Below are positions 50,140-62,445 of a DNA stretch of 64,000 bases, one piece after another. Every line of letters begins with the position of its first letter. Position 1 is the first letter of the stretch. The position numbers were made by a program, and so were the translations under genes. The stretch spans positions 210 through 64,209 of the forward strand of contig JAZRJE010000011.1 of NCBI GenBank assembly GCA_045645645.1, written 5' to 3'. Origin of the DNA: Candidatus Enterousia sp. (GTDB lineage: Bacteria > Pseudomonadota > Alphaproteobacteria > Rs-D84). The notes below the pieces were generated by a model. The model did no database searches and had not been told where the DNA came from. It saw only the letters and a program-made list of their open reading frames with translations.

Positions 50140-50694
50140 ATGGTGTGGAGCATAGTTGCGAAGCAATTCATTAAACAAGGCGCAAAAACTGTAGCCAAAA
50201 AAGGCGGAAAAAAAATTGCTGCCAAGGGCGCCAAAGCCGCTGCAGGTGGAACCTTTATGAAAATATTAGACTACACCGACCCTTTTTACTGGATTGGCCG
50301 CGGTCTTAAAGCATCTAAAAAAACAATTGCCAAGACCGCCAAGAAAAAAGCATTTAAAAAGGCCGCTGCAAAAACAGCAATAATGGGCGGTGCTGGGCTA
50401 ACTTTTGGAAGTGTACTTAGCAGTGTTGGCACAACTATTGCGGCGCCAGAATTTATTATTCCTGCATTATTGGGTGCAACTGTTGGGGCATACGGTTTTT
50501 ATAAAGTAAACACTATATTTGGCAAAAAGAAGAGCTCACACAATGAGGATTCTACACCAAAAACAGTGACAATAAAAAATGAAAAACCTATTGATTTGAA
50601 AGAATTTAAACCAAAACAAATTAAGCAAATAAGGAAATTAACACCTGCACAAATACATGCTTTGCGAGCTAAAGAATATACACACGCAGCGTAA
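50140..50694 (+). CDS. Lys/Ala-rich protein with central hydrophobic Gly-rich segments (hypothetical)
   Basis: 184 aa. 'AKKGGKKIAAKGAKAAAGG', 'KKTIAKTAKKKAFKKAAAK', then 'IMGGAGLTFGSVLSSVGTTIAAPEFIIPALLGATVGAYGF'. Confidence 0.5.
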   Translation: MVWSIVAKQFIKQGAKTVAKKGGKKIAAKGAKAAAGGTFMKILDYTDPFYWIGRGLKASKKTIAKTAKKKAFKKAAAKTAIMGGAGLTFGSVLSSVGTTIAAPEFIIPALLGATVGAYGFYKVNTIFGKKKSSHNEDSTPKTVTIKNEKPIDLKEFKPKQIKQIRKLTPAQIHALRAKEYTHAA

Positions 50695-50756: not shown

Positions 50757-50832
50757 GCCGGTTTAGCTCAGTTGGTAGAGCGGCTGATTTGTAATCAGTA
50801 GGTCGTTGGTTCAAGTCCGACAACCGGCACCA
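50757..50832 (+). tRNA. tRNA-Thr (anticodon UGU), CCA encoded
   Basis: Acceptor stem GCCGGTT/AACCGGC, D-arm TAGCTCAGTTGGTAGAGC, anticodon loop TTTGTAA, T-arm GGTTCAAGTCC, then ACCA. Confidence 0.9.
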
Positions 50833-50833
50833 G
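50788..50833 (+). repeat. attL core: 46-bp direct repeat (3' part of tRNA-Thr)
   Basis: Identical to 62400-62445. Confidence 0.9.
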
Positions 50834-50920: not shown

Positions 50921-51023
50921 AAATGTCCCAAATTTGGACCAAAAAAATCCCAATAAAAGCCACAGAAAACTGCAATAAAATCATCGGCGCACTAAAAAAA
51001 TTTTATGGTCCAGTTTTGGTCCA
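50921..51023 (+). repeat. Left-arm repeat set: ATGTCCCAAATTTGGACCA plus ATGGTCCAGTTTTGGTCCA (candidate integrase arm-type sites)
   Basis: TGGACCA at 50935-50941 and TGGTCCA at 51006-51012 and 51017-51023. The same composite motifs are present at 62170-62311. Confidence 0.6.
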
Positions 51024-51262: not shown

Positions 51263-51604
51263 CTATTTTAAGCCATTTCCACAATTTATACAATATTTAG
51301 CATGTTTTTTATTTACTGTTTTGCACTTAGCGCATGTTTTTAAGTGTTTTATATTTGCACCACATTTGGGACAGAACGCATCGTTTTCTTCAACGAACAC
51401 ATGGCATTTCGGACAACGAGGCACAGGTTTATTATCTGAATTAGTTGGCATCAGGCCCCCGCATTCTGAACAATGCAGAGTTGTTTTGCGTGGAATAAAG
51501 AAAACTAATGGCCCAAATATAAGTGCAAACAATATGGCACGCCCCAAACCCGTCCGCGGTTCTACAATGGTTTCTTTTTTACATTTATCGCAATACGCCC
51601 GCAT
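51263..51604 (-). CDS. Multi-zinc-ribbon protein with an internal TM segment
   Basis: 113 aa. CxxC pairs 'CDKCKK', 'CSECGG', 'CPKCH', 'CPKCG', 'CAKCK', 'CINCG'. Hydrophobic 'AILFALIFGPLVFFI'. Its start lies 14 nt after the hsdR stop. Confidence 0.6.
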   Translation of the reverse strand: MRAYCDKCKKETIVEPRTGLGRAILFALIFGPLVFFIPRKTTLHCSECGGLMPTNSDNKPVPRCPKCHVFVEENDAFCPKCGANIKHLKTCAKCKTVNKKHAKYCINCGNGLK

Positions 51605-51618
51605 TTTTATCTCCTTTA

Positions 51619-54600
51619 TTATTCACTAATACTGAAAAAGCGTTCAAAGAATGCCACAATCTTTTCAATCACTGTTTTTTTCTTTTGGGCGCGGTTATTA
51701 TCACGGTCAAACATGGACATTGGTGGCAAGATTTTGCCAATATCTGTGCCACTGGTTTGAACCGCACCATCGCGGAATGCATTTTGAACAAACTTGTATG
51801 TTTCTTCACGGTTCAAGTTTTCTTCGGCAATTATACGGTCCAGTTCTGCGGCCTTGGCACTGTTAACAAATTTAACCCAATCACGGTCAACAATGGTGTC
51901 AGGTGTTAAAGATGCCACGAACTGCATAATCAGGTCTTTTTTATTACGCAATTCAACACTGGAATCCACCGCCTTTTGGATTGTTATCAAAATTTCTTTG
52001 TCATTCATGTGTGATTCATGATAACGCGCAATCAAGGACAGGATATAGTCAATGTTAACGTCCACGGACTTTATCAATTCCATTTCAAAGACCACATCGT
52101 CCTTTACATTTTCTGCGGTGCCATGCGTTGGGCGCATTTCTGCATACAGACCGATATACATACTTTGGTAATCTTGGAATTGGCGCGGACTTAATATTTC
52201 ATTGCCAGCAAATTCATCAAATGAATGCAAAATGTTCTTTACGCGCAATATTGCACCGAACAGACGCACAAATTCTTTCTTGTCGCTTTCAGACGCCAAC
52301 ACAATGCCCGCTTGGAATTTATCAGTTAATTCACTTATCAGTTCGGCATAACCCGCCACATGCTTGCCGTTCTTTTCATAACCGTTATAATATTCATCAT
52401 AAGTTTTCAGCAATACCAAACCAGCCGCATCTTTGTCGCCAAACAAGGCAATACTTTCATTTGTTGCGTTTTCCAAGTTGCGGAAACATACAATATTGCC
52501 ATGCGTTTTAACAGCATTCAAAATACGGTTAGTGCGTGAAAAGGCCTGCAATAAACCATGTTGGCGCAGGTTCTTGTCCACCCACAGTGTGTTTAATGTT
52601 GTGGCATCAAAACCAGTCAGAAACATATTGACCACGATAACCATGTCCAATTCACGGTTTTTAATACGCAACGACAGGTCTTTGTAATAGTTTGGGAATT
52701 TGGCAGCACTGGTATCAAATGCGGTTCCAAACATTGCATTATAGTCCGCAATGGCCATATCCAAGAAATCACGCGAACTGGCATCCAAACCACTGGTGTC
52801 ATCACTGTTTTCATCCAGAACACCATCCTCTTCATTTACGCCAAAACTGTAAATGGTCGCAATCTTTATTTGTTTGTCCGATGGCAGGTCCGCCATTTGG
52901 CGCTTGAATTCGTTATAATACAGTTTTGCGGCATCAATACTGGACACAGCGAACATGGAATTAAAGCCCGCCAGACGGCGTTCTTTTACCTTGTAAAAGG
53001 TATTGCGCATGGTCTTTTGGTCAAAGTGTTCCAAAATATACTTTGTTATGCGACTAATGCGTTCAGGGGCCAATAATATACCCTCGCGGTCAATGTCGGC
53101 AACCTGCTTGTCGTCAATATCTTCTGCAACGCGCAGGGTTGAAACATAATCAATTTTGAACGGCAGAACATTCTTGTCACGAATGGCGTCCACAATGGTA
53201 TAAGTGTGCAACTTTTGCCCGAACGCCTGTTCTGTGGTTTTCAGGTCTGGTTTACCGCCACCCTGGGCATTGGCTGCAAAGATTGGTGTGCCTGTAAAGC
53301 CAAACAGGTGATATTTCTTGAACGACTTTGTTATAGCACTGTGCATTTCACCAAATTGGGAACGGTGGCATTCATCGAATATCAAAACCACATGTTGGTC
53401 AAACACAGGGTGGTCACGATGCTTTTTAATGAAAGTCGACAGTTTTTGAATGGTGGTTATAATAATTCGCGCACTGGATTCTGGACGCAACTGGCGTTCC
53501 AATACGGCAGTGCTGGTATTGCTGTTGGCGGCACCTTTTTGGAAACGGTCATATTCCAACATTGTTTGATAGTCCAAGTCCTTGCGGTCAACCACAAACA
53601 AAACCTTGTCTATGTCGGTGCGTGCGCTGGCCAATTGGGCGGTTTTGAAACTGGTTAATGTTTTGCCCGAACCCGTGGTGTGCCAAATATAACCACCACC
53701 GTCAACGGTTCCCCATTTCTTATAGTTATTTGCAATTTGTATTTTGTTCAATATGCGTTCGGTGGCCACAATTTGGTATGGGCGCATAACCAGCAATTGT
53801 TGGTCCGCATTAAATACACAATACTTGGTTAAAACATTCAAAATACTGTGGCGCGCCAAGAATGTTTTTGCAAAGTCCATCAGGTCTGTGATTGGCATAT
53901 TGTTGGCGTCCGCCCACCATGATGTGAATTCAAAACTGTTGCTGGTGCGTTTGCCTGCCTTGGGGCCACGATTGGCATTTTCGTTTATGTGTGAAATGCG
54001 GGTGGTGTTACTGTAATACTTGGTATATGTGCCATTTGAAATAACGAAAATCTGAACATATTCATACAGACCAGAACCCGCCCAGAAACTGTCACGCTGA
54101 TAACGGTTTATTTGGTTAAAGGCCTCTTTGATATCAACGCCACGGCGTTTTAATTCCACATGAACCATTGGAATACCATTAACCAATATGGTCACATCAT
54201 AACGATTTTCATGCACGCCTGCATCGGTTTCATATTGGTTTATAACCTGCAAGGTGTTATTGTGAATGTTTTCTTTGTCAATCAGGTAAATATTTTTAAC
54301 TGTCCCGTTGTCACGGGTTAACAACTGAATATGGTCTTCTTGGATAATGCGTGTTTTTTCACGAATGCCATTTGATTGGTTGGCAATATTTTGGGCAAAG
54401 AACCGATCCCATTCCGCATCGGTAAAGGTATATTTATTTAATTTTTCCAACTGTTGGCGCAGGTTGGCAATCAATTCGGATTCAGTGTGAATTTTTACAG
54501 GTTCATACCCCTGGGCCCCAAGTTGTTTTATGAATGCCTGTTCTAATGCGGCCTCGGACTGATAGCGTGTTGCGCTGGTGTCACCTGCGTTATATTCTGC

Positions 54601-54648
54601 GACAACCGTGCCTTGGACATTTTGTGCAACAACATCGTATTTAACCAT
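51619..54648 (-). CDS. hsdR: Type I restriction enzyme R subunit
   Basis: 1009 aa. 'WHTTGSGKTLTSF' (motif I), 'LIFDECHRSQ' (DEAH motif II), 'FTGTPIF', 'QAFSRTNR'. Confidence 0.9.
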   Translation of the reverse strand: MVKYDVVAQNVQGTVVAEYNAGDTSATRYQSEAALEQAFIKQLGAQGYEPVKIHTESELIANLRQQLEKLNKYTFTDAEWDRFFAQNIANQSNGIREKTRIIQEDHIQLLTRDNGTVKNIYLIDKENIHNNTLQVINQYETDAGVHENRYDVTILVNGIPMVHVELKRRGVDIKEAFNQINRYQRDSFWAGSGLYEYVQIFVISNGTYTKYYSNTTRISHINENANRGPKAGKRTSNSFEFTSWWADANNMPITDLMDFAKTFLARHSILNVLTKYCVFNADQQLLVMRPYQIVATERILNKIQIANNYKKWGTVDGGGYIWHTTGSGKTLTSFKTAQLASARTDIDKVLFVVDRKDLDYQTMLEYDRFQKGAANSNTSTAVLERQLRPESSARIIITTIQKLSTFIKKHRDHPVFDQHVVLIFDECHRSQFGEMHSAITKSFKKYHLFGFTGTPIFAANAQGGGKPDLKTTEQAFGQKLHTYTIVDAIRDKNVLPFKIDYVSTLRVAEDIDDKQVADIDREGILLAPERISRITKYILEHFDQKTMRNTFYKVKERRLAGFNSMFAVSSIDAAKLYYNEFKRQMADLPSDKQIKIATIYSFGVNEEDGVLDENSDDTSGLDASSRDFLDMAIADYNAMFGTAFDTSAAKFPNYYKDLSLRIKNRELDMVIVVNMFLTGFDATTLNTLWVDKNLRQHGLLQAFSRTNRILNAVKTHGNIVCFRNLENATNESIALFGDKDAAGLVLLKTYDEYYNGYEKNGKHVAGYAELISELTDKFQAGIVLASESDKKEFVRLFGAILRVKNILHSFDEFAGNEILSPRQFQDYQSMYIGLYAEMRPTHGTAENVKDDVVFEMELIKSVDVNIDYILSLIARYHESHMNDKEILITIQKAVDSSVELRNKKDLIMQFVASLTPDTIVDRDWVKFVNSAKAAELDRIIAEENLNREETYKFVQNAFRDGAVQTSGTDIGKILPPMSMFDRDNNRAQKKKTVIEKIVAFFERFFSISE

Positions 54649-54664
54649 TTTTCACCCCTGTATT

Positions 54665-55831
54665 TTATGCCGCCATTGGGAATGACAACAATTTATCCCG
54701 ATAATATTCATACTGTTGACGGCGTGCGTTTATTTCCGCAGGCAACCCGTCAGATATATCATTCACCAACGCATCAAATTTATCCAAAATCGCAACAATC
54801 CGTTCCTGTTCCGCAAGTGGCGGAATTGGGATTTGAAATTTAGCAAACTCTTCTTTTGTAATTGTTTTTATTATACCCCCCCTTGCAAATTCCTTTTCAA
54901 TGCCGAACACACGCTGCAACTGATATGCAAAGTATTTTTTAGATATATCGATTTTATAATCTGAAAATATTGCCAATGTTCTGTCGACATAAGAATCATA
55001 TTGTGTCAAGGCAACCCTACCTATACTGCCTTGTATAGAAACAATAACCGTATCATTTGGTACAAAAACGCTCATTGGCTGCGCTAATACAGAAATTTTG
55101 TTTTTAGTATTGTTAACCAATCTTAAATCATTGCCAACATCGACCACTTGCACAAACGGCATTGCACCATCGCCGCCATACCACTTTTCTTCGCCATAGG
55201 GTTGTGGGAACGAACCACGTCTAAAATTACAAATTTCAGAAAGTGCCATTGTTCTTACCCCCCCCTGTGAAATATCAGCAAAATTCAACAACTTATCACG
55301 ATAGTGTTCATATTGTTTTTTTCTTGCCTCCAGTTCTGCCTCCAGTTCTGTAAAAGAGTCCAGAATACGAACTATTTCCTGCTGCACTGGCAATGGTGGA
55401 ACGGGGATTTGAATATTCCGTAAATTTTGCTGGTTTAACTTTGGGGGCGTTCCTCGCACAATATCAGAAACATCTGTCGCAGATAACGCAAAATAAACAT
55501 ACCGTAAATTTGCAACATCCTGCCTTTCGCTTAATACATGCGCATGGTTATTCACCCAAATTTTACCAGTCGCCCAATTTAATACTGGAGACTTGTTTGG
55601 ATTTATTACACTACCGTCTTCACCGACCAGCAAGAAAGTTCCGTCAAACAAGTATCCCGAAACCCTATCTTGAATCCCATTTGCACCATAATATGGGAAT
55701 TCCCCAGCGGTGCGTTTAGATTTTGTTATGGGCTTTCTTCGACTGTCCAATATGTCGCAAATTTCCCCAAGCGACTTATATTCCACACCATTCGGGCAAT
55801 ATTTTGCAATTAAGTCGATTATTTTTGACAT
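54665..55831 (-). CDS. hsdS: Type I restriction enzyme S (specificity) subunit
   Basis: 388 aa. Two TRDs are separated by conserved helices 'PPLPVQQEIVRILDSFTELEAELEARKKQYEHYRDKLL' and 'PPLAEQERIVAILDKFDALV...RRQQYEYYRDKLL'. Confidence 0.9.
   Translation of the reverse strand: MSKIIDLIAKYCPNGVEYKSLGEICDILDSRRKPITKSKRTAGEFPYYGANGIQDRVSGYLFDGTFLLVGEDGSVINPNKSPVLNWATGKIWVNNHAHVLSERQDVANLRYVYFALSATDVSDIVRGTPPKLNQQNLRNIQIPVPPLPVQQEIVRILDSFTELEAELEARKKQYEHYRDKLLNFADISQGGVRTMALSEICNFRRGSFPQPYGEEKWYGGDGAMPFVQVVDVGNDLRLVNNTKNKISVLAQPMSVFVPNDTVIVSIQGSIGRVALTQYDSYVDRTLAIFSDYKIDISKKYFAYQLQRVFGIEKEFARGGIIKTITKEEFAKFQIPIPPLAEQERIVAILDKFDALVNDISDGLPAEINARRQQYEYYRDKLLSFPMAA
54876..54882 (-). repeat. G7 homopolymer inside hsdS (coding strand)
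   Basis: C7 on the plus strand. It encodes 'ARGGI'. Confidence 0.9.
55258..55265 (-). repeat. G8 homopolymer inside hsdS (coding strand)
   Basis: C8 on the plus strand. It encodes 'SQGGV'. Confidence 0.9.
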
Positions 55832-56436
55832 TGGTCACCTCCCTCTGGGGCTTGCAGTTCACTTGCAAACAAATCACGAAGTTTTTTATCAGATTTACAA
55901 ACGTCTGCATGTTCTTTTACATATTCAAAACTTTTCATAACATCGTGTTTCATTTGACCAGAATTTAATGCGCCATTACAATCCAAACGAATATAACTTT
56001 CATTGGTATAATCCAGCGGTTTTTCAAAAAACATTTTCAATTCATCATAAAAGAAATACAGTTTATCTTGAATGGCACTTGAAAAAAACAACTCGGATTC
56101 TTGGCATGTATTCAACATGCGTTTCAACAACAAAGAAACAGTTTTTGCATTTAATGTTTCAATTTCAATCAAACTGATTGTATGCAAAATATCATAAAAT
56201 TCTGTATAAACTTTTAACTTATATGGATATTCTGCCGACCATTTGCGCATTTTTTCATCCGCATCTGCATTTTTACGCTGTTCGATTAAATCTTTTTTAC
56301 GAATATGATGTTGCCACCACAAAGTCCCGACTGTTGCAAAAATCGATACCCCCAACGCAATCCAAGCAACCCAATCAATGCCAGAATTTTGGACCGTGAT
56401 AACATCGTTAATTAAATGGGTTTGAACGGGTTCCAT
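55819..56436 (-). CDS. Single-pass membrane protein embedded between hsdM and hsdS (unknown function)
   Basis: 205 aa. TM 'WVAWIALGVSIFATVGTLWW' and a helical C-terminal domain. Its start overlaps the hsdM stop (TAATG) and its end overlaps the hsdS start by 13 nt. It is visibly more AT-rich than the hsd genes. Confidence 0.6.
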   Translation of the reverse strand: MEPVQTHLINDVITVQNSGIDWVAWIALGVSIFATVGTLWWQHHIRKKDLIEQRKNADADEKMRKWSAEYPYKLKVYTEFYDILHTISLIEIETLNAKTVSLLLKRMLNTCQESELFFSSAIQDKLYFFYDELKMFFEKPLDYTNESYIRLDCNGALNSGQMKHDVMKSFEYVKEHADVCKSDKKLRDLFASELQAPEGGDQCQK

Positions 56437-57995
56437 TATTCATCCCCCTGTAAATCTGCAACAATTGCATCAATTTGGGTACGCAATACGCTTTGACGGG
56501 CAACAATGTCGCCAATGCGTGCATTCAGTTCGTTTATATCGATTTTTTCACGCGTATCGGGCTGTTCAACATATGTGGATACAGACAGGTTATAATCATT
56601 TTCCGCAACATCGGTGTTATTTACCAATTTGGCAAAGTGTTCCATATCTGCGCGCCCAATAAACGCATTCAATATTGTTTCAATGTTTTCATCAGATAAT
56701 TTATTCTTGTTCCCAGAATGCACAAATTGGCTGCCTGCATCAATAAACAGAATGCCATTGTCCGTTTTGTTTTTCTTTAATACGATAATACAGGTTGCGA
56801 TTGTCACCCCAAAGAACAGGTTTGCGGGCAACTGAATAATGCAATCTACATAATTGTTATCAACCAAGTATTTACGGATTTTCTGTTCTGCACCACCACG
56901 ATACAGCACCCCAGGGAATTCAACAATTGCCGCCGTGCCAGATGCCGACAACCATGACAACATATGCATTGTGAATGCAAGGTCTGATTTGCCGCGTGGT
57001 GCCAACACACCCGCAGGTGCAAAGCGTGGGTCGTTTATCAGCAATGGGTTATCATCGCCATCCCATGGAATTGAATAAGGCGGGTTGGATACAATCGCAT
57101 CAAACGGTTCTTCATCCCAATGTTTTGGCTCCAACAATGTGTCGCCATGTGCGATATTAAACTTTTCATAATTTATATTATGCAGGAACATGTTAATACG
57201 GCACAGATTGTATGTGGTTATGTTCTTTTCCTGGCCAAAGAATCCCTGACGCACGCCATTTTGTCCCAATATTTTTGCAAACTTTAACAATAACGAACCC
57301 GAACCACATGCAGGGTCATAAACCTTGTTAACCTCGGTCTTGCCGACAAGGGTGATTTTTGCCAACAGTTCTGATACTTCTTGCGGGGTAAAGAATTCAC
57401 CACCAGATTTACCCGCATTGCTGGCATACATGGTCATAAGATATTCATACGCATCACCAAAGGCATCAATGCTGTTATCTGTGAAATTCCCAAGGTCCAA
57501 ACCAGCAATGGCATCCAATATTTTTACCAGTTTTTTGTTTCTTTCTGGGACGGATGCACCCAATTTATTACTGTTCACATCAATGTCGTCAAACAGGCCA
57601 CGGAAATCATCTTCACTTTCTGCGCCAATGGCGGAATTTTCAATATTCGCAAATACGGCAGCCAATGTTTCATTCAGGTTGGCATCTGCCTTGGCCGTGC
57701 GTTGGATATTTACAAACAATTCAGACGGCAGGATAAAAAACCCTTTGGATTCAATACATTCATTGCGTGCGATTTCTGCGCTGGCATCGTTCAGGTTGGC
57801 ATAACTGAAATCTTTATTACCAGCGGCATGTTCGTTTTTATCAATATAGTGCGCAATATTTTCGGATATAAAGCGATAAAATAAAAAGCCCAATACATAT
57901 GCTTTGAAATCCCAACCGTCAACCGCACCACGCAAATCGTTTGCAATCTGCCATATAACACGGTGCAATTCCGCTCTTTCCTGTTCGCGCGCCAT
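56436..57995 (-). CDS. hsdM: Type I restriction enzyme M (methyltransferase) subunit
   Basis: 519 aa. HsdM_N region, '[13 protein letters not shown]' (AdoMet motif I), 'IVSNPPYS' (NPPY motif IV). Confidence 0.9.
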
Positions 57996-58346
57996 TATAA
58001 ACCCCTACATTTGAAAAAATTAAACCACCGAACAAAGCGGTGGTTGGAGGTTCAGAACTATAATACTCGGAATATAGCGGGCTTATTCAATATATTCACC
58101 GCCCTCCAACCATACAGATTGGAGGTATTTTTTGTCCCCACGGACACCGAGTATAAAACGGGTTCTGACGCCCAACACAGCAACCGCCATGTCATTGCAT
58201 ATACTACAACAAAAAATGACAAAAATCAAATCCCACCTGTTAAGGTGGGGGGGTGGTATTGTTATATGGTATGTGAATAATATACATGGGGGTTATTGGT
58301 GGGGTATATTGGTATGGCACATATAGCCCACTTATTACACAGTGGC

Positions 58347-59813
58347 TTACAGTGTTATATCATCTGGGACCACTGATTCTGCCATCTTGTTCATTATGCA
58401 CTCTGCGTCTTGGAACGCTTTTTCATACATAATATTTCGCTGTTCAACGGACATGTCCATGTTATCCACGGACTTTGCGTTCAAAATTGAATTTTTACGC
58501 AGGATGCTGCACAGTGAAAACGGGTCATCATCTTTACTGGTATGTTCTGCATGCGTTCCCACTGTTGGTGCGCAAGGCGGAACAACGGGACAAGGCGTTT
58601 CAGGTGCGGCTGCTACTGTTTCATATTCACCTGTTTCATTGGGCAAATAACTCTGAAACGCATCTTCAAACGCCGCCAATTCATAACCGCGTGCAGTTTT
58701 TGCCCCAAGGCGCTTTTGGATTGGCCTGATATTAAAGCCATGCAACATGTTTGCCAATTTTACATTGGTTAGCACAACATGCCCATATTGCCTGTCACCC
58801 CATGGTCGACTTTCGCAACGATACAAATGCCCCAACAGGTCCTTGGTCGCTATAAAATCACACCCAATGTTATTGAACACATCACGAATGTCGGCCAACA
58901 ACTGAATTTCCAAAACTTCGGCATCATCGTTTTTTGGGACCAAACACCCCGCGGCATAAGTTAATTCATTCACCAGTGTTGGCGATATTAAATACGCAAT
59001 GGCAAATAATGGTTCCCATATATCCTTGGCACGGTCATGCAGGAATTTGGGCATCGTGGGGTTAATTTCACCAATTGCTCTGGCATTATCCCACATAAAA
59101 CGCATGCACATGCTGCGCAATTGTTCAGTGTGCGACAACAATGCATTTGGGCGCAATCTTTCAACAGTGTCGTTTGGCTTTTTACGCCGCATTACAACCG
59201 CAATACTGCGGTCCATTATGGTGCTGTCGCGTTCACCAATACCCGCAATTGCCATCGCACTAAAACACGCAAATCTTTTGGGCAAATAACCGCTCTTGGT
59301 ATCCACATTACGAACAACATGACCATTTTTCTGATATCCTGCATTGATAACGCTACGCATCGTTTGGTCGCCATTCATGAAACAATCGGCCTCGTCAATT
59401 AACAAGGTTGGGTGCATGGCATCAATGCAACGAAACACGCCAGACGCAGTTATGCCTGCAACATTCAATGGTCGATCGACCGTCATTTCCAGCAACTGCA
59501 ACAATTGGGTTTTGCCACATCTTGGAACAGGTGAATAAATACATAACCGTGGTGTATAATAAAACACATCCATGGCATATGTATGCAGCACCCAAAACGG
59601 CAACATACTTGATACGCCATCGGGCAAGACCAGAAAGCGTTCAAACACCGCTTTCAACGCACCCACTAAATCCATGCCATTTACTGGTTCTGGCCATGGT
59701 GTTGGCATTGGTATATCTTGACTGTTTTTATTTTTCATATTACTATCCCTATGACCATAATGTGAATCCGTGCCAGTTTGGGCGGATTCATTTTTTGTTA
59801 AAACATCTGCCAT
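58347..59813 (-). CDS. DUF3631-like P-loop protein of integrative elements
   Basis: 'WPEPVNG..L......F.R......G.....PFWVLHTY...VFYYTPRLCIYSPVPRCGKTQLLQLL' and 'LLIDEAD'. Start taken at MADVL (59813). Confidence 0.6.
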   Translation of the reverse strand: MADVLTKNESAQTGTDSHYGHRDSNMKNKNSQDIPMPTPWPEPVNGMDLVGALKAVFERFLVLPDGVSSMLPFWVLHTYAMDVFYYTPRLCIYSPVPRCGKTQLLQLLEMTVDRPLNVAGITASGVFRCIDAMHPTLLIDEADCFMNGDQTMRSVINAGYQKNGHVVRNVDTKSGYLPKRFACFSAMAIAGIGERDSTIMDRSIAVVMRRKKPNDTVERLRPNALLSHTEQLRSMCMRFMWDNARAIGEINPTMPKFLHDRAKDIWEPLFAIAYLISPTLVNELTYAAGCLVPKNDDAEVLEIQLLADIRDVFNNIGCDFIATKDLLGHLYRCESRPWGDRQYGHVVLTNVKLANMLHGFNIRPIQKRLGAKTARGYELAAFEDAFQSYLPNETGEYETVAAAPETPCPVVPPCAPTVGTHAEHTSKDDDPFSLCSILRKNSILNAKSVDNMDMSVEQRNIMYEKAFQDAECIMNKMAESVVPDDITL

Positions 59814-59815
59814 GA

Positions 59816-60046
59816 TTATGCCCCCTTTCTTACTCTGCCCGTGGATGAGGGGTTTGTGGAAACCCACTGAAAGAATTTGACTTCATCAATCAAAACCTTG
59901 GCCCCAACACGGTGGATTACCCCCATGTCATCCAATCCATTGAACGGGCGGTGAAATACCAGGTCCCTGATGCTGCCCTCAGAAAATGCAGGGTGTTTTT
60001 TTGCGAACTGTTTAACAGTTAAATAATGTGGAACACCATCACTCAT
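59816..60046 (-). CDS. Excisionase/AlpA-like HTH DNA-binding protein
   Basis: 76 aa. 'YLTVKQFAKKHPAFSEGSIRDLV' is HTH-like. It lies between the integrase module and the DUF3631 gene. Confidence 0.45.
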   Translation of the reverse strand: MSDGVPHYLTVKQFAKKHPAFSEGSIRDLVFHRPFNGLDDMGVIHRVGAKVLIDEVKFFQWVSTNPSSTGRVRKGA

Positions 60047-60182: not shown

Positions 60183-60980
60183 TTACTGGTTTTTCTTATT
60201 TATCGTTTTCACTAGGGCACTGATATCAAAACTAATATCATACCCCTTATTAAGACCAGGACATGAATTGTTTATCATTTGGATAACTGCGGTGGCAAAA
60301 TCTACAAACGGTGTGCTTTGTCGTTTAACTTGTTTTTTTTGATTAGGGCGCATTGTCTGCAAATCCCCAATAATCGGCAATGGTTTTCTTGTATTTGAAG
60401 ATGCAGATACTGGCGTGGGCTTTTTGCCTGTTGTAAGTTTGTAAATATCCATAAGCCGTTCTATAAAGCGTTTGTTTATTGCATTACTGTGTGTTTCCAA
60501 GTCGGTTGGGCGGTGGGCTGCCAATGGTCCCATTTTGTTTATTAAGTATGTAAAGAAACGATCTTGCAATTCTGGGGCTGCGATTAGCAATTCATCCCAT
60601 GGCATAATGGTGTGGCCCGCATGTTTCAAATCTGAAAACGCTTGGTCTATACGGTCATACAAATATGCCTTTGTGTTGGGGTTTTCTAATATGCGTTTAA
60701 TGTTTCGGACATTAATTAACAACTCTTCCAATTCATTGTGTATATCCCCAGTGGTCATCAAACGCATTTTATAATCAACAACCAATTGTTTCATTGCGTC
60801 TGTTAAGTAAAAATCCAACTCATCAATTTGCGCTGCGGGAGCAATTATTAACTCTTTGGAAACAAACAAAGAAACAGTCGGAACAATTTCTGTTTCAGCG
60901 GACTCCCCTGAATGCAGCATAAATTTTATATCATCATACAATTGATATTTTTGGTCTGGTGTATATCTAATGGTTGTCAT
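60183..60980 (-). CDS. Hypothetical island protein
   Basis: 265-aa ORF overlapping the integrase stop by 14 nt. No motif recognised. Confidence 0.5.
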   Translation of the reverse strand: MTTIRYTPDQKYQLYDDIKFMLHSGESAETEIVPTVSLFVSKELIIAPAAQIDELDFYLTDAMKQLVVDYKMRLMTTGDIHNELEELLINVRNIKRILENPNTKAYLYDRIDQAFSDLKHAGHTIMPWDELLIAAPELQDRFFTYLINKMGPLAAHRPTDLETHSNAINKRFIERLMDIYKLTTGKKPTPVSASSNTRKPLPIIGDLQTMRPNQKKQVKRQSTPFVDFATAVIQMINNSCPGLNKGYDISFDISALVKTINKKNQ

Positions 60981-62034
60981 CTGTTTCCCCGAATATTTTT
61001 GCGTTCATACTGGCCACGACACTGCTTTTATGTGCATTGGACAGGTGCGCATACCGTTTTACCATGGAAAGCGTTTTATGCCCCAAGACATCTGCGATTT
61101 CATTTGGGCTGGCACCATTCATTGCCAAATAACTGGCACAGGTGTGGCGCAAATCATGGAATCTGAAATCAGGCAACTTGGCCTTGGCCACCACGGTTGC
61201 CCAACTGCGTTTTATTTCACAAGGCCCCGAATTTTTATCATTTGGGAACAGCCATATGTCGGATTTGCGCTTTTCATACAACTGGCGCACTAATTCTAAC
61301 GCTGGCCCCCATAATGGCAAACCGCGCATTTCACCATTCTTGGTATGTTCCAGAACCGCCCAACCACTATCCAAATCAACATTCGCCCATTTCAGCGACA
61401 ATATTTCACCACGTCTGGCACCAGTTGAAATTGCCAATACGATGATTGTGTATAATTCCTTATTTTTGGATTCTTTGGCGGCATTCAACAACCGATCCCG
61501 CTCTGTATCACTTAAAAAGCGTGTGCGCCCTTTGTTTTCGCGTTTGTGTTCAACCCTTGTCACGGGATTTGTATCCAACCAGCCCTGCGTTTTTACACCA
61601 TAGGCCAACGCACAACTTAACGCAGCCAAATATCTGTTTAGTGTTGCGGGACTTTTAGGGCGCTTGCCATATTGGATTTTTGCAATTTGGTCCAATGCGT
61701 TGGTTATAACCGTGGGAGTCAAAGAATACAGTTTGGTTGTGCCAATAAACCTGTCCCATTCATCCAACTGAGTGGTTAAATTCTTGGCAGACCGCAACCC
61801 CTTATCTTCAATATGCCGCTTATACAACGTCAGCAATTCGCTAAAAGTGTGATTACGCGCATTCATGTTGGGCATGTGCTTTTGGTCGCGCATTTCTGTT
61901 TCGGTTTTGGCGGCCCATTCACGCGCCAATGTTTTACTGGAAAATGTCGCTGTTTGGATAAGATTTCCCTCAACGCGAACTCGCGCCCTATATTTAACAC
62001 CTGCCTTGGTTATTCTTTTTTCTATTGTCGCCAT
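60967..62034 (-). CDS. int: Tyrosine-type site-specific integrase
   Basis: 355 aa from MATIEKR (62034). 'TGARRGEIL' (catalytic Arg), 'FHDLRHTCAS' (HxxR), 'LGHKTLSMVKRYAHL' (catalytic Tyr). The upstream in-frame extension to 62346 is rejected. Confidence 0.9.
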   Translation of the reverse strand: MATIEKRITKAGVKYRARVRVEGNLIQTATFSSKTLAREWAAKTETEMRDQKHMPNMNARNHTFSELLTLYKRHIEDKGLRSAKNLTTQLDEWDRFIGTTKLYSLTPTVITNALDQIAKIQYGKRPKSPATLNRYLAALSCALAYGVKTQGWLDTNPVTRVEHKRENKGRTRFLSDTERDRLLNAAKESKNKELYTIIVLAISTGARRGEILSLKWANVDLDSGWAVLEHTKNGEMRGLPLWGPALELVRQLYEKRKSDIWLFPNDKNSGPCEIKRSWATVVAKAKLPDFRFHDLRHTCASYLAMNGASPNEIADVLGHKTLSMVKRYAHLSNAHKSSVVASMNAKIFGETDDNH

Positions 62035-62169
62035 CACTTTTGCCTTGTTTTCTGACACTTTACAATAACTTACAGCAAATGTCAAAAAGATACCATAGAT
62101 TATTAATCTGTGGAACGGTCTGCCGACGCCCGCAGAATTCTGGGATTTATTTTCAACATAAATAAAAAA

Positions 62170-62311
62170 TGGTCCAGTTTTGGTCCAGAACGACAAGTTT
62201 GCATATCGCAAAACCCTCAAAAAACCGATGCTTTCAGAGCAAAAATTCGGCACCCAACTTTTACTGAATTTTATTGTCGCATTTTGAAAAAAATGTCCCC
62301 AAAGTGGACCA
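62170..62311 (+). repeat. Right-arm repeat set: ATGGTCCAGTTTTGGTCCA plus ATGTCCCCAAAGTGGACCA (candidate integrase arm-type sites)
   Basis: TGGTCCA at 62170-62176 and 62181-62187, and TGGACCA at 62305-62311. The set mirrors the left-arm set around the core. Confidence 0.6.
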
Positions 62312-62399
62312 TTTAGATAATAAAAAACGCCTTTCAACACAGGCACTAATTTGATTTTTCAGGATTTTTCAAGCGTTCACAAACGCCCCCTGAACAATG

Positions 62400-62445
62400 T
62401 TTGTAATCAGTAGGTCGTTGGTTCAAGTCCGACAACCGGCACCAG
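62400..62445 (+). repeat. attR core: 46-bp direct repeat (displaced 3' tRNA-Thr fragment, not a functional tRNA)
   Basis: Identical to 50788-50833. It lacks the 5' half of the tRNA. Confidence 0.9.

Follow-up and report, generated by a model that had tools for sequence, protein, structure and literature searches.

It is well established that genes can be embedded in the operons of type I restriction-modification (R-M) systems, and PrrC, RloC, TgvAB, RhuM and Ronin are all examples. Ronin (RonA-HsdS-HsdM), from E. coli ECOR55, is a decoy/abortive-infection system containing RonA, a 61-residue protein with a single transmembrane (TM) segment that is tightly linked to hsdS-hsdM. RonA is toxic alone and is neutralised by HsdMS, while Ocr, ArdA and Aop1 trigger growth arrest (Silas et al., bioRxiv 10.1101/2023.04.06.535777). 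The classical guard is PrrC, which lies within the type IC system EcoprrI; it fires upon inhibition of restriction, and T4 Stp unleashes it. Systems that are embedded yet independent have also been documented, among them TgvAB (V. cholerae VPI-2, type IV restriction) and those of Payne 2024. Here we describe orf205, a gene located between hsdM and hsdS of a type I R-M operon within a 64,000-nucleotide (nt) stretch of DNA from Candidatus Enterousia, a gut alphaproteobacterium (contig JAZRJE010000011.1). The whole of this stretch is referred to as the window, and the product of orf205 and its relatives are referred to as X.

By sequence comparison, orf205 founds a small family of proteins that lack annotation. 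The initial annotation of this DNA regarded a membrane protein in this position, together with a membrane zinc-ribbon protein, as an unfamiliar layout. Genes within type I operons are already a known theme, and what is new is the X protein family, its strict hsdM/X/hsdS position in complete R-M operons, and its evolution as a mosaic of two modules. Our tentative reading, to which we give a probability of about 0.4, is that X is a restriction-coupled membrane effector, that is, a guard or abortive-infection (Abi) module like RonA or PrrC.

The type IC operon and orf205

The genes of the operon, in the order in which they are read, are listed here together with the two modules of orf205. Coordinates are those of the window.

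56436-57995, minus strand: hsdM, 519-residue N6-adenine methyltransferase subunit with an NPPY motif (Pfam N6_Mtase and HsdM_N; PADLOC MTase_I)
55819-56436, minus strand: orf205 (X), whole gene, between hsdM and hsdS
56188-56436, minus strand: orf205 N-module, residues 1-83, predicted to run from a short tail outside the cytoplasm through a TM helix (23-41) and a basic/charged linker to the joint motif
55819-56187, minus strand: orf205 C-module, residues 84-205, predicted variable cytoplasmic helical bundle, 32% GC, swappable cassette
54665-55831, minus strand: hsdS, specificity subunit with two target recognition domains (TRDs) (Pfam Methylase_S in two stretches; PADLOC Specificity_I)
51619-54648, minus strand: hsdR, 1009-residue type IC restriction/translocase subunit, apparently intact (Pfam and PADLOC)
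51263-51604, minus strand: zinc-ribbon open reading frame (ORF), 113 residues, predicted membrane-inserted triple zinc ribbon, after hsdR

The junctions between these genes are tight. The hsdM stop and the orf205 start share the sequence TAATG, giving a 1-nt overlap, with a Shine-Dalgarno sequence (SD) GGGGGA 8 nt upstream. The overlap between orf205 and hsdS is 13 nt, and the tail of orf205 (...PEGGDQCQK, then stop) encodes, out of frame, both the SD of hsdS (GGGAGGTGA) and its ATG. The gap between hsdS and hsdR is 16 nt (hsdR SD GGGGTGA) and that between hsdR and the zinc-ribbon ORF is 14 nt (SD AAGGAGA). Coordinates and junction sequences thus agree with the five minus-strand ORFs, overlaps and gaps of the initial annotation. 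Its remark that orf205 is AT-rich is also borne out: the GC content is 34.1% for orf205 (32.0% in the C-terminal two thirds), compared to 42.4% for hsdM and 42.6% for hsdR.

HsdM matches the Pfam family N6_Mtase with an E value of 1e-114, in addition to HsdM_N. HsdR contains the Pfam domains HSDR_N, SWI2_SNF2, T1R_D3-like and EcoR124_C, the last at 230 bits, and scores 1172 bits against the PADLOC model REase_I; its translation shows a DECH helicase motif and a D...ELK nuclease motif. We assign the system to type IC because HsdR carries the family-specific EcoR124_C domain. The gene order hsdM-hsdS-hsdR is as expected for this type, save for orf205 inserted between M and S. From its sequence, therefore, the locus is a complete and intact type IC R-M operon, an ordinary member of the EcoR124I/EcoprrI family. 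When hsdS is compared with that of three related loci (L010, L012 and L033; L numbers denote loci, and P numbers proteins), only the 5' end, the centre (55232-55401) and the 3' end are conserved, and the TRDs differ. A search for signs of a phase-variable shufflon found no inverted hsdS copies and no inverted repeats.

Orf205 has no match in Pfam, NCBIfam or PADLOC and no significant match in PHROGs. Homologs were sought by a word-indexed search of 5.8 billion proteins, which gave 13 clusters with a single-sequence query and 34 with a family profile, and by an exhaustive HMMER scan of 1.84 billion representatives, which gave 29. None of the family clusters found bears a name. Members are 170-240 residues long. 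No relatives of X were found in 2.9 million viral contigs in two scans with the patterns used, nor was there a match in PLSDB (72,556 plasmids, 3,412 of them with HsdM homologs).

The lack of any match in Pfam, NCBIfam, PADLOC or PDB might suggest that orf205 is spurious, or the degraded remnant of a known gene, and is kept only so that ribosomes can pass on to hsdS. We find this barely credible. Full-length homologs occur in 34 clusters and share a conserved motif, the structure is confidently predicted to be all-helical, and stand-alone copies exist outside hsd operons. The ratio of non-synonymous to synonymous substitution rates (dN/dS) is 0.09-0.29 for orthologous pairs with little allele replacement, similar to that of hsdM at depth; apparent values rise to 0.46-0.64 where alleles were swapped. 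These values indicate that X is a real gene under purifying selection. Together with the full-length homologs and the conserved motif, they make it very unlikely that orf205 is a degraded fragment of a known gene.

Distribution and modular architecture of the X family

DNA context was readable for 16 family clusters, all of them from metagenome contigs of uncultured gut bacteria. In 13 of the 16, X lies immediately 5' of hsdS in an operon of the EcoR124_C type, and in every one of these 13 it overlaps the hsdS start, by 4-13 nt. The spacing between hsdM and X varies from a 1-nt overlap to a 4-nt gap. This position is kept down to 27-31% identity to orf205, at which point HsdM and HsdR are 64-77% identical to those of the window. 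Many members without DNA context end in ...N-K-D-E-stop, as an overlapping ATGAGTAA (HsdS M-S-K...) would encode, and for P0034 and P0037 this overlap with hsdS was verified. The initial annotation asked for a check on whether orf205 homologs are associated with hsd operons; they are so in 13 of the 16 clusters, and the translational coupling there is of the same kind. X thus appears to be translated almost always as part of the hsdM-hsdS message of one type IC lineage.

Other embedded genes are found around X. A RhuM-family gene lies directly 5' of X in L034, L036, L037 and L038, and in three loci it stands between hsdM and X (with an 8-nt overlap with X in L034 and a 39-nt gap in L036). Homologs of PrrC occur between hsdS and hsdR of two X-bearing operons, and in L042, L046 and L047 an AAA_13 gene (Pfam) occupies the same hsdS-hsdR slot with X also present. 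PrrC and X therefore coexist, in L019 and L045, and are not alternatives. Such operons resemble EcoprrI but contain a membrane gene in addition. The coordinates, within the respective loci, are:

L034 5965-7008, L036 5825-6877 and L038 5968-7014: RhuM-family gene directly 5' of X (Pfam Virulence_RhuM; PADLOC PDC-S05)
L019 3505-4656 and L045 8806-9885: PrrC homologs between hsdS and hsdR of X-bearing operons (PADLOC, E of about 1e-96)

Separately, we note a gene of 381-387 residues that recurs between hsdS and hsdR of X-bearing type IC operons (L039 9154-10317, L041 8773-9918 and L048 8039-9196). This gene in the PrrC-type slot has no Pfam or PADLOC match and is a further candidate embedded gene.

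The nearest operon that lacks X is on an Arthrobacter plasmid, where HsdM is 71% identical and hsdM, hsdS and hsdR overlap directly. On this comparison, and from its absence from the plasmids searched, X is an accessory to the R-M operon and is dispensable for its architecture. The initial annotation considered orf205 to be a later insertion, and we agree that it looks like one, because it is AT-rich and the genes of its closest X-less relative overlap directly.

Three clusters lie outside hsd operons. P0003 and P0004 are stand-alone X proteins (52-54% identity), each followed by a small membrane protein and with defence-like neighbours: T5orf172/ResIII, SocA_Panacea and an N6_N4 methyltransferase. 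In L038 a RhuM-X pair with an 8-nt overlap occurs without hsd genes, and is followed by an unannotated 727-residue protein and an Eco57I-like methylase. These contexts raise the question of whether X functions on its own in defence or exclusion, as a holin-like Abi or superinfection exclusion protein whose gene hitch-hikes in the hsd operon, so as to be transferred and expressed together with it, and which has no coupling to HsdM, HsdS or HsdR. Besides the stand-alone homologs near other defence-like genes and the RhuM-X pair of L038, it would be consistent with the AT-rich and cassette-like nature of X, with the other genes embedded in the same operon lineage (PrrC, RhuM/PDC-S05 and the 381-387-residue gene), and with the independent embedded systems on record (TgvAB; Payne 2024). 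Against this stands the position of X, which is always directly 5' of hsdS and overlapping it, and nowhere else in the operon, across 13 clusters with 27-100% identity, whereas other embedded genes such as PrrC take the hsdS-hsdR slot. The main domain of X is moreover predicted to be cytoplasmic, unlike a classical exclusion protein, which acts outside the membrane. We therefore regard an autonomous role as rather unlikely.

The predicted architecture of X is consistent across the family. Orf205 has one hydrophobic segment, at residues 23-41. In 33 of 33 members examined there is a single such segment on the N-terminal side, and in all 33 its C-terminal flank is richer in lysine and arginine. 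By the positive-inside rule, this places the short tail outside and the bulk of X in the cytoplasm, and X is thus predicted to be a single-pass membrane protein with its N-terminus out and its C-terminus in. Behind the TM segment lies a basic/charged linker, which varies in length by 0-22 extra residues rich in E, R and K; next, in the family alignments, comes a nearly invariant joint motif, W-x-A-x-Y-P-[HY]-[KR]-L...F-Y-D, which in orf205 is W66-x-A68-x-Y70-P71-x-x-L74...F80-Y81-D. Beyond the joint the alignments show a helical region that is poorly conserved.

The AlphaFold2 model of orf205 is all-helical, with a confidence (predicted local distance difference test, pLDDT) of 80. It consists of a long helix (6-89) and a bundle, with helices at 97-117, 120-138, 160-181 and 184-194. 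A Foldseek comparison of the model with PDB and BFVD found only generic helical bundles, none with E <= 0.001, and comparison of the sequence profile with PDB found nothing.

In a scan of 31 X members under relaxed thresholds, the three PHROG families matched most often were all holins: phrog_1350 in 15 of 31 (best E 8.7e-5), phrog_4237 in 10 and phrog_20 in 9. The Pfam family Phage_holin_2_3 (HP1 holin) was matched by 6 of the 31, at best with 17.8 bits against a cut-off of 28.8. The matches always fall at residues of about 20-65, that is, the TM helix and the basic stretch. Like these holins, X continues from its TM helix into a basic, highly charged stretch in the cytoplasm, but it has an additional cytoplasmic domain of about 140 residues and neighbours hsd genes, with no lysis cassette. 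We treat the signal as a weak architectural resemblance and do not take it as homology. A further candidate was Lamassu/ABC-3C CTD4, which was matched by one member only (P0022, 21.5 bits against a cut-off of 27.6). This was not recurrent, PADLOC gave no LmuA, and the search of PDB sequences gave no chain of Lamassu; the candidate was rejected.

Comparison of near-identical operons shows that X does not evolve as a single unit. The following pairs are informative:

Window and L010/L012: HsdM 99%, X N-module 90%, X C-module 24% identity
L034 and L036: HsdM 98%, X N-module 51%, X C-module 85% identity
L041 and L045: HsdM 95%, X N-module 41%, X C-module 36% identity

Between the window and L010/L012, which are 95-97% identical in nucleotide sequence, homology ends at 56186, in codon 83 and right after the FYD of the joint, and returns at 55874, at the junction of the X tail with the hsdS start. 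Between L034 and L036 the difference is confined to the first 49 or so codons of X, which encode the anchor, and between L041 and L045 both modules are replaced. From this replacement of modules in near-identical operons we conclude that X behaves as two recombining cassettes joined at the conserved motif. Exchange takes place at the joint by recombination, and each module moves without regard to the other or to hsdM and hsdR, much like the TRDs of hsdS.

The related genome L033 provides a recent example. Here a tract of 848 nt (56666-55819), comprising the last 230 nt of hsdM and all of orf205, is identical to the window with zero mismatches, and ends exactly at the X stop codon. The flanks are diverged by about 3% (hsdM 54/1560, hsdR 89/3030), and the TRDs of hsdS differ. 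This pattern points to recombination or conversion having carried the orf205 allele very recently.

The architecture could also be explained if X were not a toxin at all, but a membrane tether or assembly regulator whose bundle binds the M2S core or HsdR at the inner membrane. Such a tether could give early contact with incoming DNA, or could delay or limit restriction while the island becomes established in a new host. The N-out/C-in topology and the charged, variable-length spacer between the membrane and the joint fit this, as do the two unrelated N-modules, either of which could serve as anchor, and the translational coupling with M and S, which suggests stoichiometric assembly. Holubova et al. 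(BBRC 2000, 2004) are said to have found type IA and IB enzymes to be membrane-associated, but not the type IC enzyme EcoR124I. The rapid replacement of the C-module is difficult to reconcile with a tether: HsdM and HsdR remain 95-99% identical, and a docking domain should co-evolve with its partner. The stand-alone homologs and the holin-like signal would also be left unexplained. We consider a purely tethering role unlikely.

A possible restriction-coupled role for X

The most similar published system is Ronin. In both systems a small single-TM protein is tied to type I hsdM and hsdS, in an integrase-associated island beside a tRNA gene. The logic proposed for Ronin, of a membrane toxin restrained by HsdMS and set free upon binding of anti-restriction proteins, fits the position, coupling and topology of X, and the essential non-coding region upstream of Ronin recalls the conserved, structured leader present here (see below). 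There are also clear differences. RonA has 61 residues, compared to 170-240 for X with its large cytoplasmic bundle, and Ronin, ordered ronA-hsdS-hsdM, has an HsdS of half size and in most cases lacks hsdR, compared to hsdM-X-hsdS-hsdR here, where the type IC enzyme is full and apparently functional. PrrC resembles X in being embedded in operons of the type IC family, but it is soluble, an ABC-ATPase/anticodon nuclease with its gene between hsdS and hsdR; X, from between hsdM and hsdS, is a membrane protein unrelated to it. RhuM/PDC-S05, TgvAB and Fic proteins are likewise accessory genes nested in hsd operons; they are unrelated to X in sequence and fold, and none of them is a single-pass membrane protein. 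X is assigned to none of RonA, PrrC, the holins (to which its matches recur below threshold) or Lamassu CTD4.

It is from Ronin as the most similar published system, and from the parallel with PrrC, that we favour a restriction-coupled effector. This reading draws on the strict position and coupling of X, the selection acting on it, a topology that would face HsdMS, the holin-like module, the swaps expected of an arms race, the accessory nature of the gene, and the precedents. An Abi-type backup role for X is plausible, with Ronin/RonA as its precedent.

We envisage the following mechanism. X would be made stoichiometrically with HsdM and HsdS, and its cytoplasmic domain would dock on the methyltransferase core, keeping the holin-like helices apart. 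The complex would then be occupied or distorted by a phage anti-restriction protein, be it an Ocr/ArdA-type DNA mimic or some other inhibitor, and X would be freed to oligomerise and depolarise the inner membrane, aborting the infection. Contact with phage or host partners would fall to the fast-swapping C-module.

Carried further, X would make the type IC enzyme a two-layer system, in which restriction is complemented by a membrane suicide or alarm branch. It would combine a holin-like anchor with a cytoplasmic sensor that reads the state of HsdM2S or itself binds phage anti-restriction proteins, and the two modules, shuffled at the joint as TRDs are, would form a second specificity driven by recombination and directed against phage counter-defence rather than DNA sequence. 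This extension is more speculative, and we hold it to be doubtful.

Several observations weigh against a restriction-coupled effector. The holin matches are individually weak (14-24 bits, all below curated thresholds), and the signal could reflect merely a TM helix followed by a charged stretch. RonA (WP_001003201, NZ_CP010145) has no significant match to the 31-member X family by phmmer, blastp or family profile, and orf205 shows no similarity to PrrC, with no match to PADLOC PrrC or Pfam AAA_13. HsdR is present here and in the related loci, unlike the nuclease-less Ronin. The three clusters outside hsd operons (P0003, P0004 and the X of L038) demonstrate that X occurs without HsdMS. A second guard beside PrrC (L019 and L045, with AAA_13 in others) may be redundant. 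Finally, the contexts all come from the metagenome contigs described above.

Surrounding genes and wider meaning

In the 113-residue protein encoded after hsdR, residues 19-37 are hydrophobic and CxxC pairs occur at 5, 45, 64, 78, 91 and 105, matching the six pairs and single hydrophobic segment originally counted. It matches Pfam DZR (46.9 bits, cut-off 27.3) and Zn_ribbon_15 (44.9 bits, cut-off 28.9), and its architecture is that of a LITAF-like split ribbon (CxxC 5 and 45) around the hydrophobic segment, with a double zinc ribbon (63-110) behind it. It therefore resembles LITAF-like/DZR small membrane proteins, in which a CxxC knuckle, a hydrophobic insert of about 20 residues and a second knuckle precede a DZR domain; zf-LITAF-like is itself a weak match, in a 72% identical homolog. 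The AlphaFold2 model has low confidence (pLDDT 61.7), and no PADLOC defence-system model was matched. We know of no function for bacterial LITAF-like/DZR members. The dN/dS of the ORF is 0.11-0.15, which marks a real gene under purifying selection, and it is probably co-transcribed with the hsd genes.

The 72% identical homolog is found 3' of a 99% identical hsdR, with the same 14-nt spacing, in L010 and L023-L026. In other operons with HsdR of 99% identity the slot holds a different gene: an ankyrin-repeat gene in L012 and a DUF805 membrane-protein gene in L033, the latter with an SD and downstream flank matching those of the window and with an identical X allele in the operon. The slot is located as follows:

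Window 51263-51618: zinc-ribbon ORF
L010 8344-8712: 72% identical zinc-ribbon homolog
L012 6697-7221: ankyrin-repeat gene
L033 12227-12688: DUF805 membrane-protein gene

The more distant X-bearing loci gave no zinc-ribbon homolog, and their slot contains other genes, for example DUF3768 or small TM ORFs, and the closest homolog (86% identical) lies behind an unrelated 69-residue ORF.

These observations bear on the proposal in the initial annotation that orf205 and the zinc-ribbon gene form a pair within a five-gene unit, which would make them a two-protein membrane module of sensor and effector built on the R-M system. Both proteins are membrane-associated, the SDs and the 14-nt gap make co-transcription of both genes with hsd probable, and one close lineage (L010 and L023-L026) has the hsdR/zinc-ribbon junction again. 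Near-identical operons nevertheless hold an ankyrin or DUF805 gene instead, in L033 together with the identical X allele, and the homologs of the zinc-ribbon gene are missing from the more distant X-bearing loci examined, its 86% identical homolog being in an unrelated context. The pairing is thus largely refuted because the two genes do not co-occur, and we consider it very improbable. Because the contents of the slot vary, apparently through recombination, and a homolog occurs elsewhere, the zinc-ribbon gene appears to be exchangeable cargo and not X's partner, and no constant component of the operon; it would stand outside the mechanism proposed for X. We also observed that a DUF3768 gene recurs just 3' of hsdR in low-GC X-bearing operons (L042, L045-L050), and that ankyrin-repeat genes recur just 5' of hsdM in L034, L042 and L045-L047.

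The operon is part of an 11.6-kb island integrated at a tRNA-Thr gene of the Candidatus Enterousia genome. Its other features are:

50757-50832, plus strand: tRNA-Thr (TGT), identified by ARAGORN and Rfam (tRNA, 74 bits); its 3' half, 50788-50833, is the left repeat/att site
57996-58346, minus strand: non-coding leader 5' of hsdM, 351 nt, structured and conserved
58347-59867, minus strand: DUF3631 protein (Pfam DUF3631), island backbone
59816-60046, minus strand: 76-residue ORF, island backbone
60183-60980, minus strand: 265-residue ORF, island backbone
60967-62346, minus strand: tyrosine integrase, longest ORF, 459 residues with a GTG start (Pfam Phage_integrase, 110 bits)
62400-62445, plus strand: right direct-repeat copy (partial tRNA-Thr), closing the 11.6-kb island

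The island is bounded by a perfect 46-nt direct repeat (50788-50833 and 62400-62445), so that both a tyrosine integrase and a delimiting repeat of the tRNA 3' end, as expected of a tRNA-integrated island, are present. The gene order is zinc-ribbon, hsdR, hsdS, orf205, hsdM, leader, DUF3631, two small ORFs and tyrosine integrase. The same repeat-bounded arrangement is found in L033, a Candidatus Enterousia metagenome-assembled genome that is the only species-representative genome with orf205; its island is about 97% identical over the hsd genes. The integrase ORF is probably over-extended, since a homolog (L016) aligns only from residue 105 or thereabouts (MATIEKR...), which would put the real start close to 62034. 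Just within the two ends of the island, at 51005-51023 and 62169-62187, are the copies of another perfect direct repeat, of 19 nt (ATGGTCCAGTTTTGGTCCA); these may be arm-type binding sites of the integrase. Just outside the island, beside tRNA-Thr, 50140-50694 (plus strand) encodes a 184-residue protein rich in Lys and Ala with hydrophobic stretches and no family match.

The leader is about 95% conserved 5' of hsdM in L010, L011, L013 and L033, even where the upstream gene is different. It folds unusually well, with a z-score of -4.45, and contains two terminator-like hairpins (58249-58232 and 58045-58023), the second of which is followed by a run of U and lies about 20 nt before the hsdM SD. 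A search of Rfam gave no family. The leader may be an attenuator or a regulatory RNA.

Type I R-M operons can host guards against phages that block restriction, of which few have been characterised, namely PrrC/RloC and RonA. X adds an unannotated family that is very strictly positioned and translationally coupled between the methylase and specificity genes, and whose mosaic evolution parallels the shuffling of TRDs. Its immediate reach is limited by the small size of the family, which to date comes from metagenomes of uncultured organisms alone. If X is a membrane effector or tether controlled by the HsdMS core, the principle of Ronin and PrrC would apply to full R-M enzymes as well, and to an effector of a new type, and X would offer a handle on how anti-restriction is sensed. 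It would also mean that uncultured gut bacteria hold defence modules that are missed by PADLOC 2.0, Pfam and NCBIfam. With its function predicted as above, X is a clean and testable candidate for a second kind of R-M guard.

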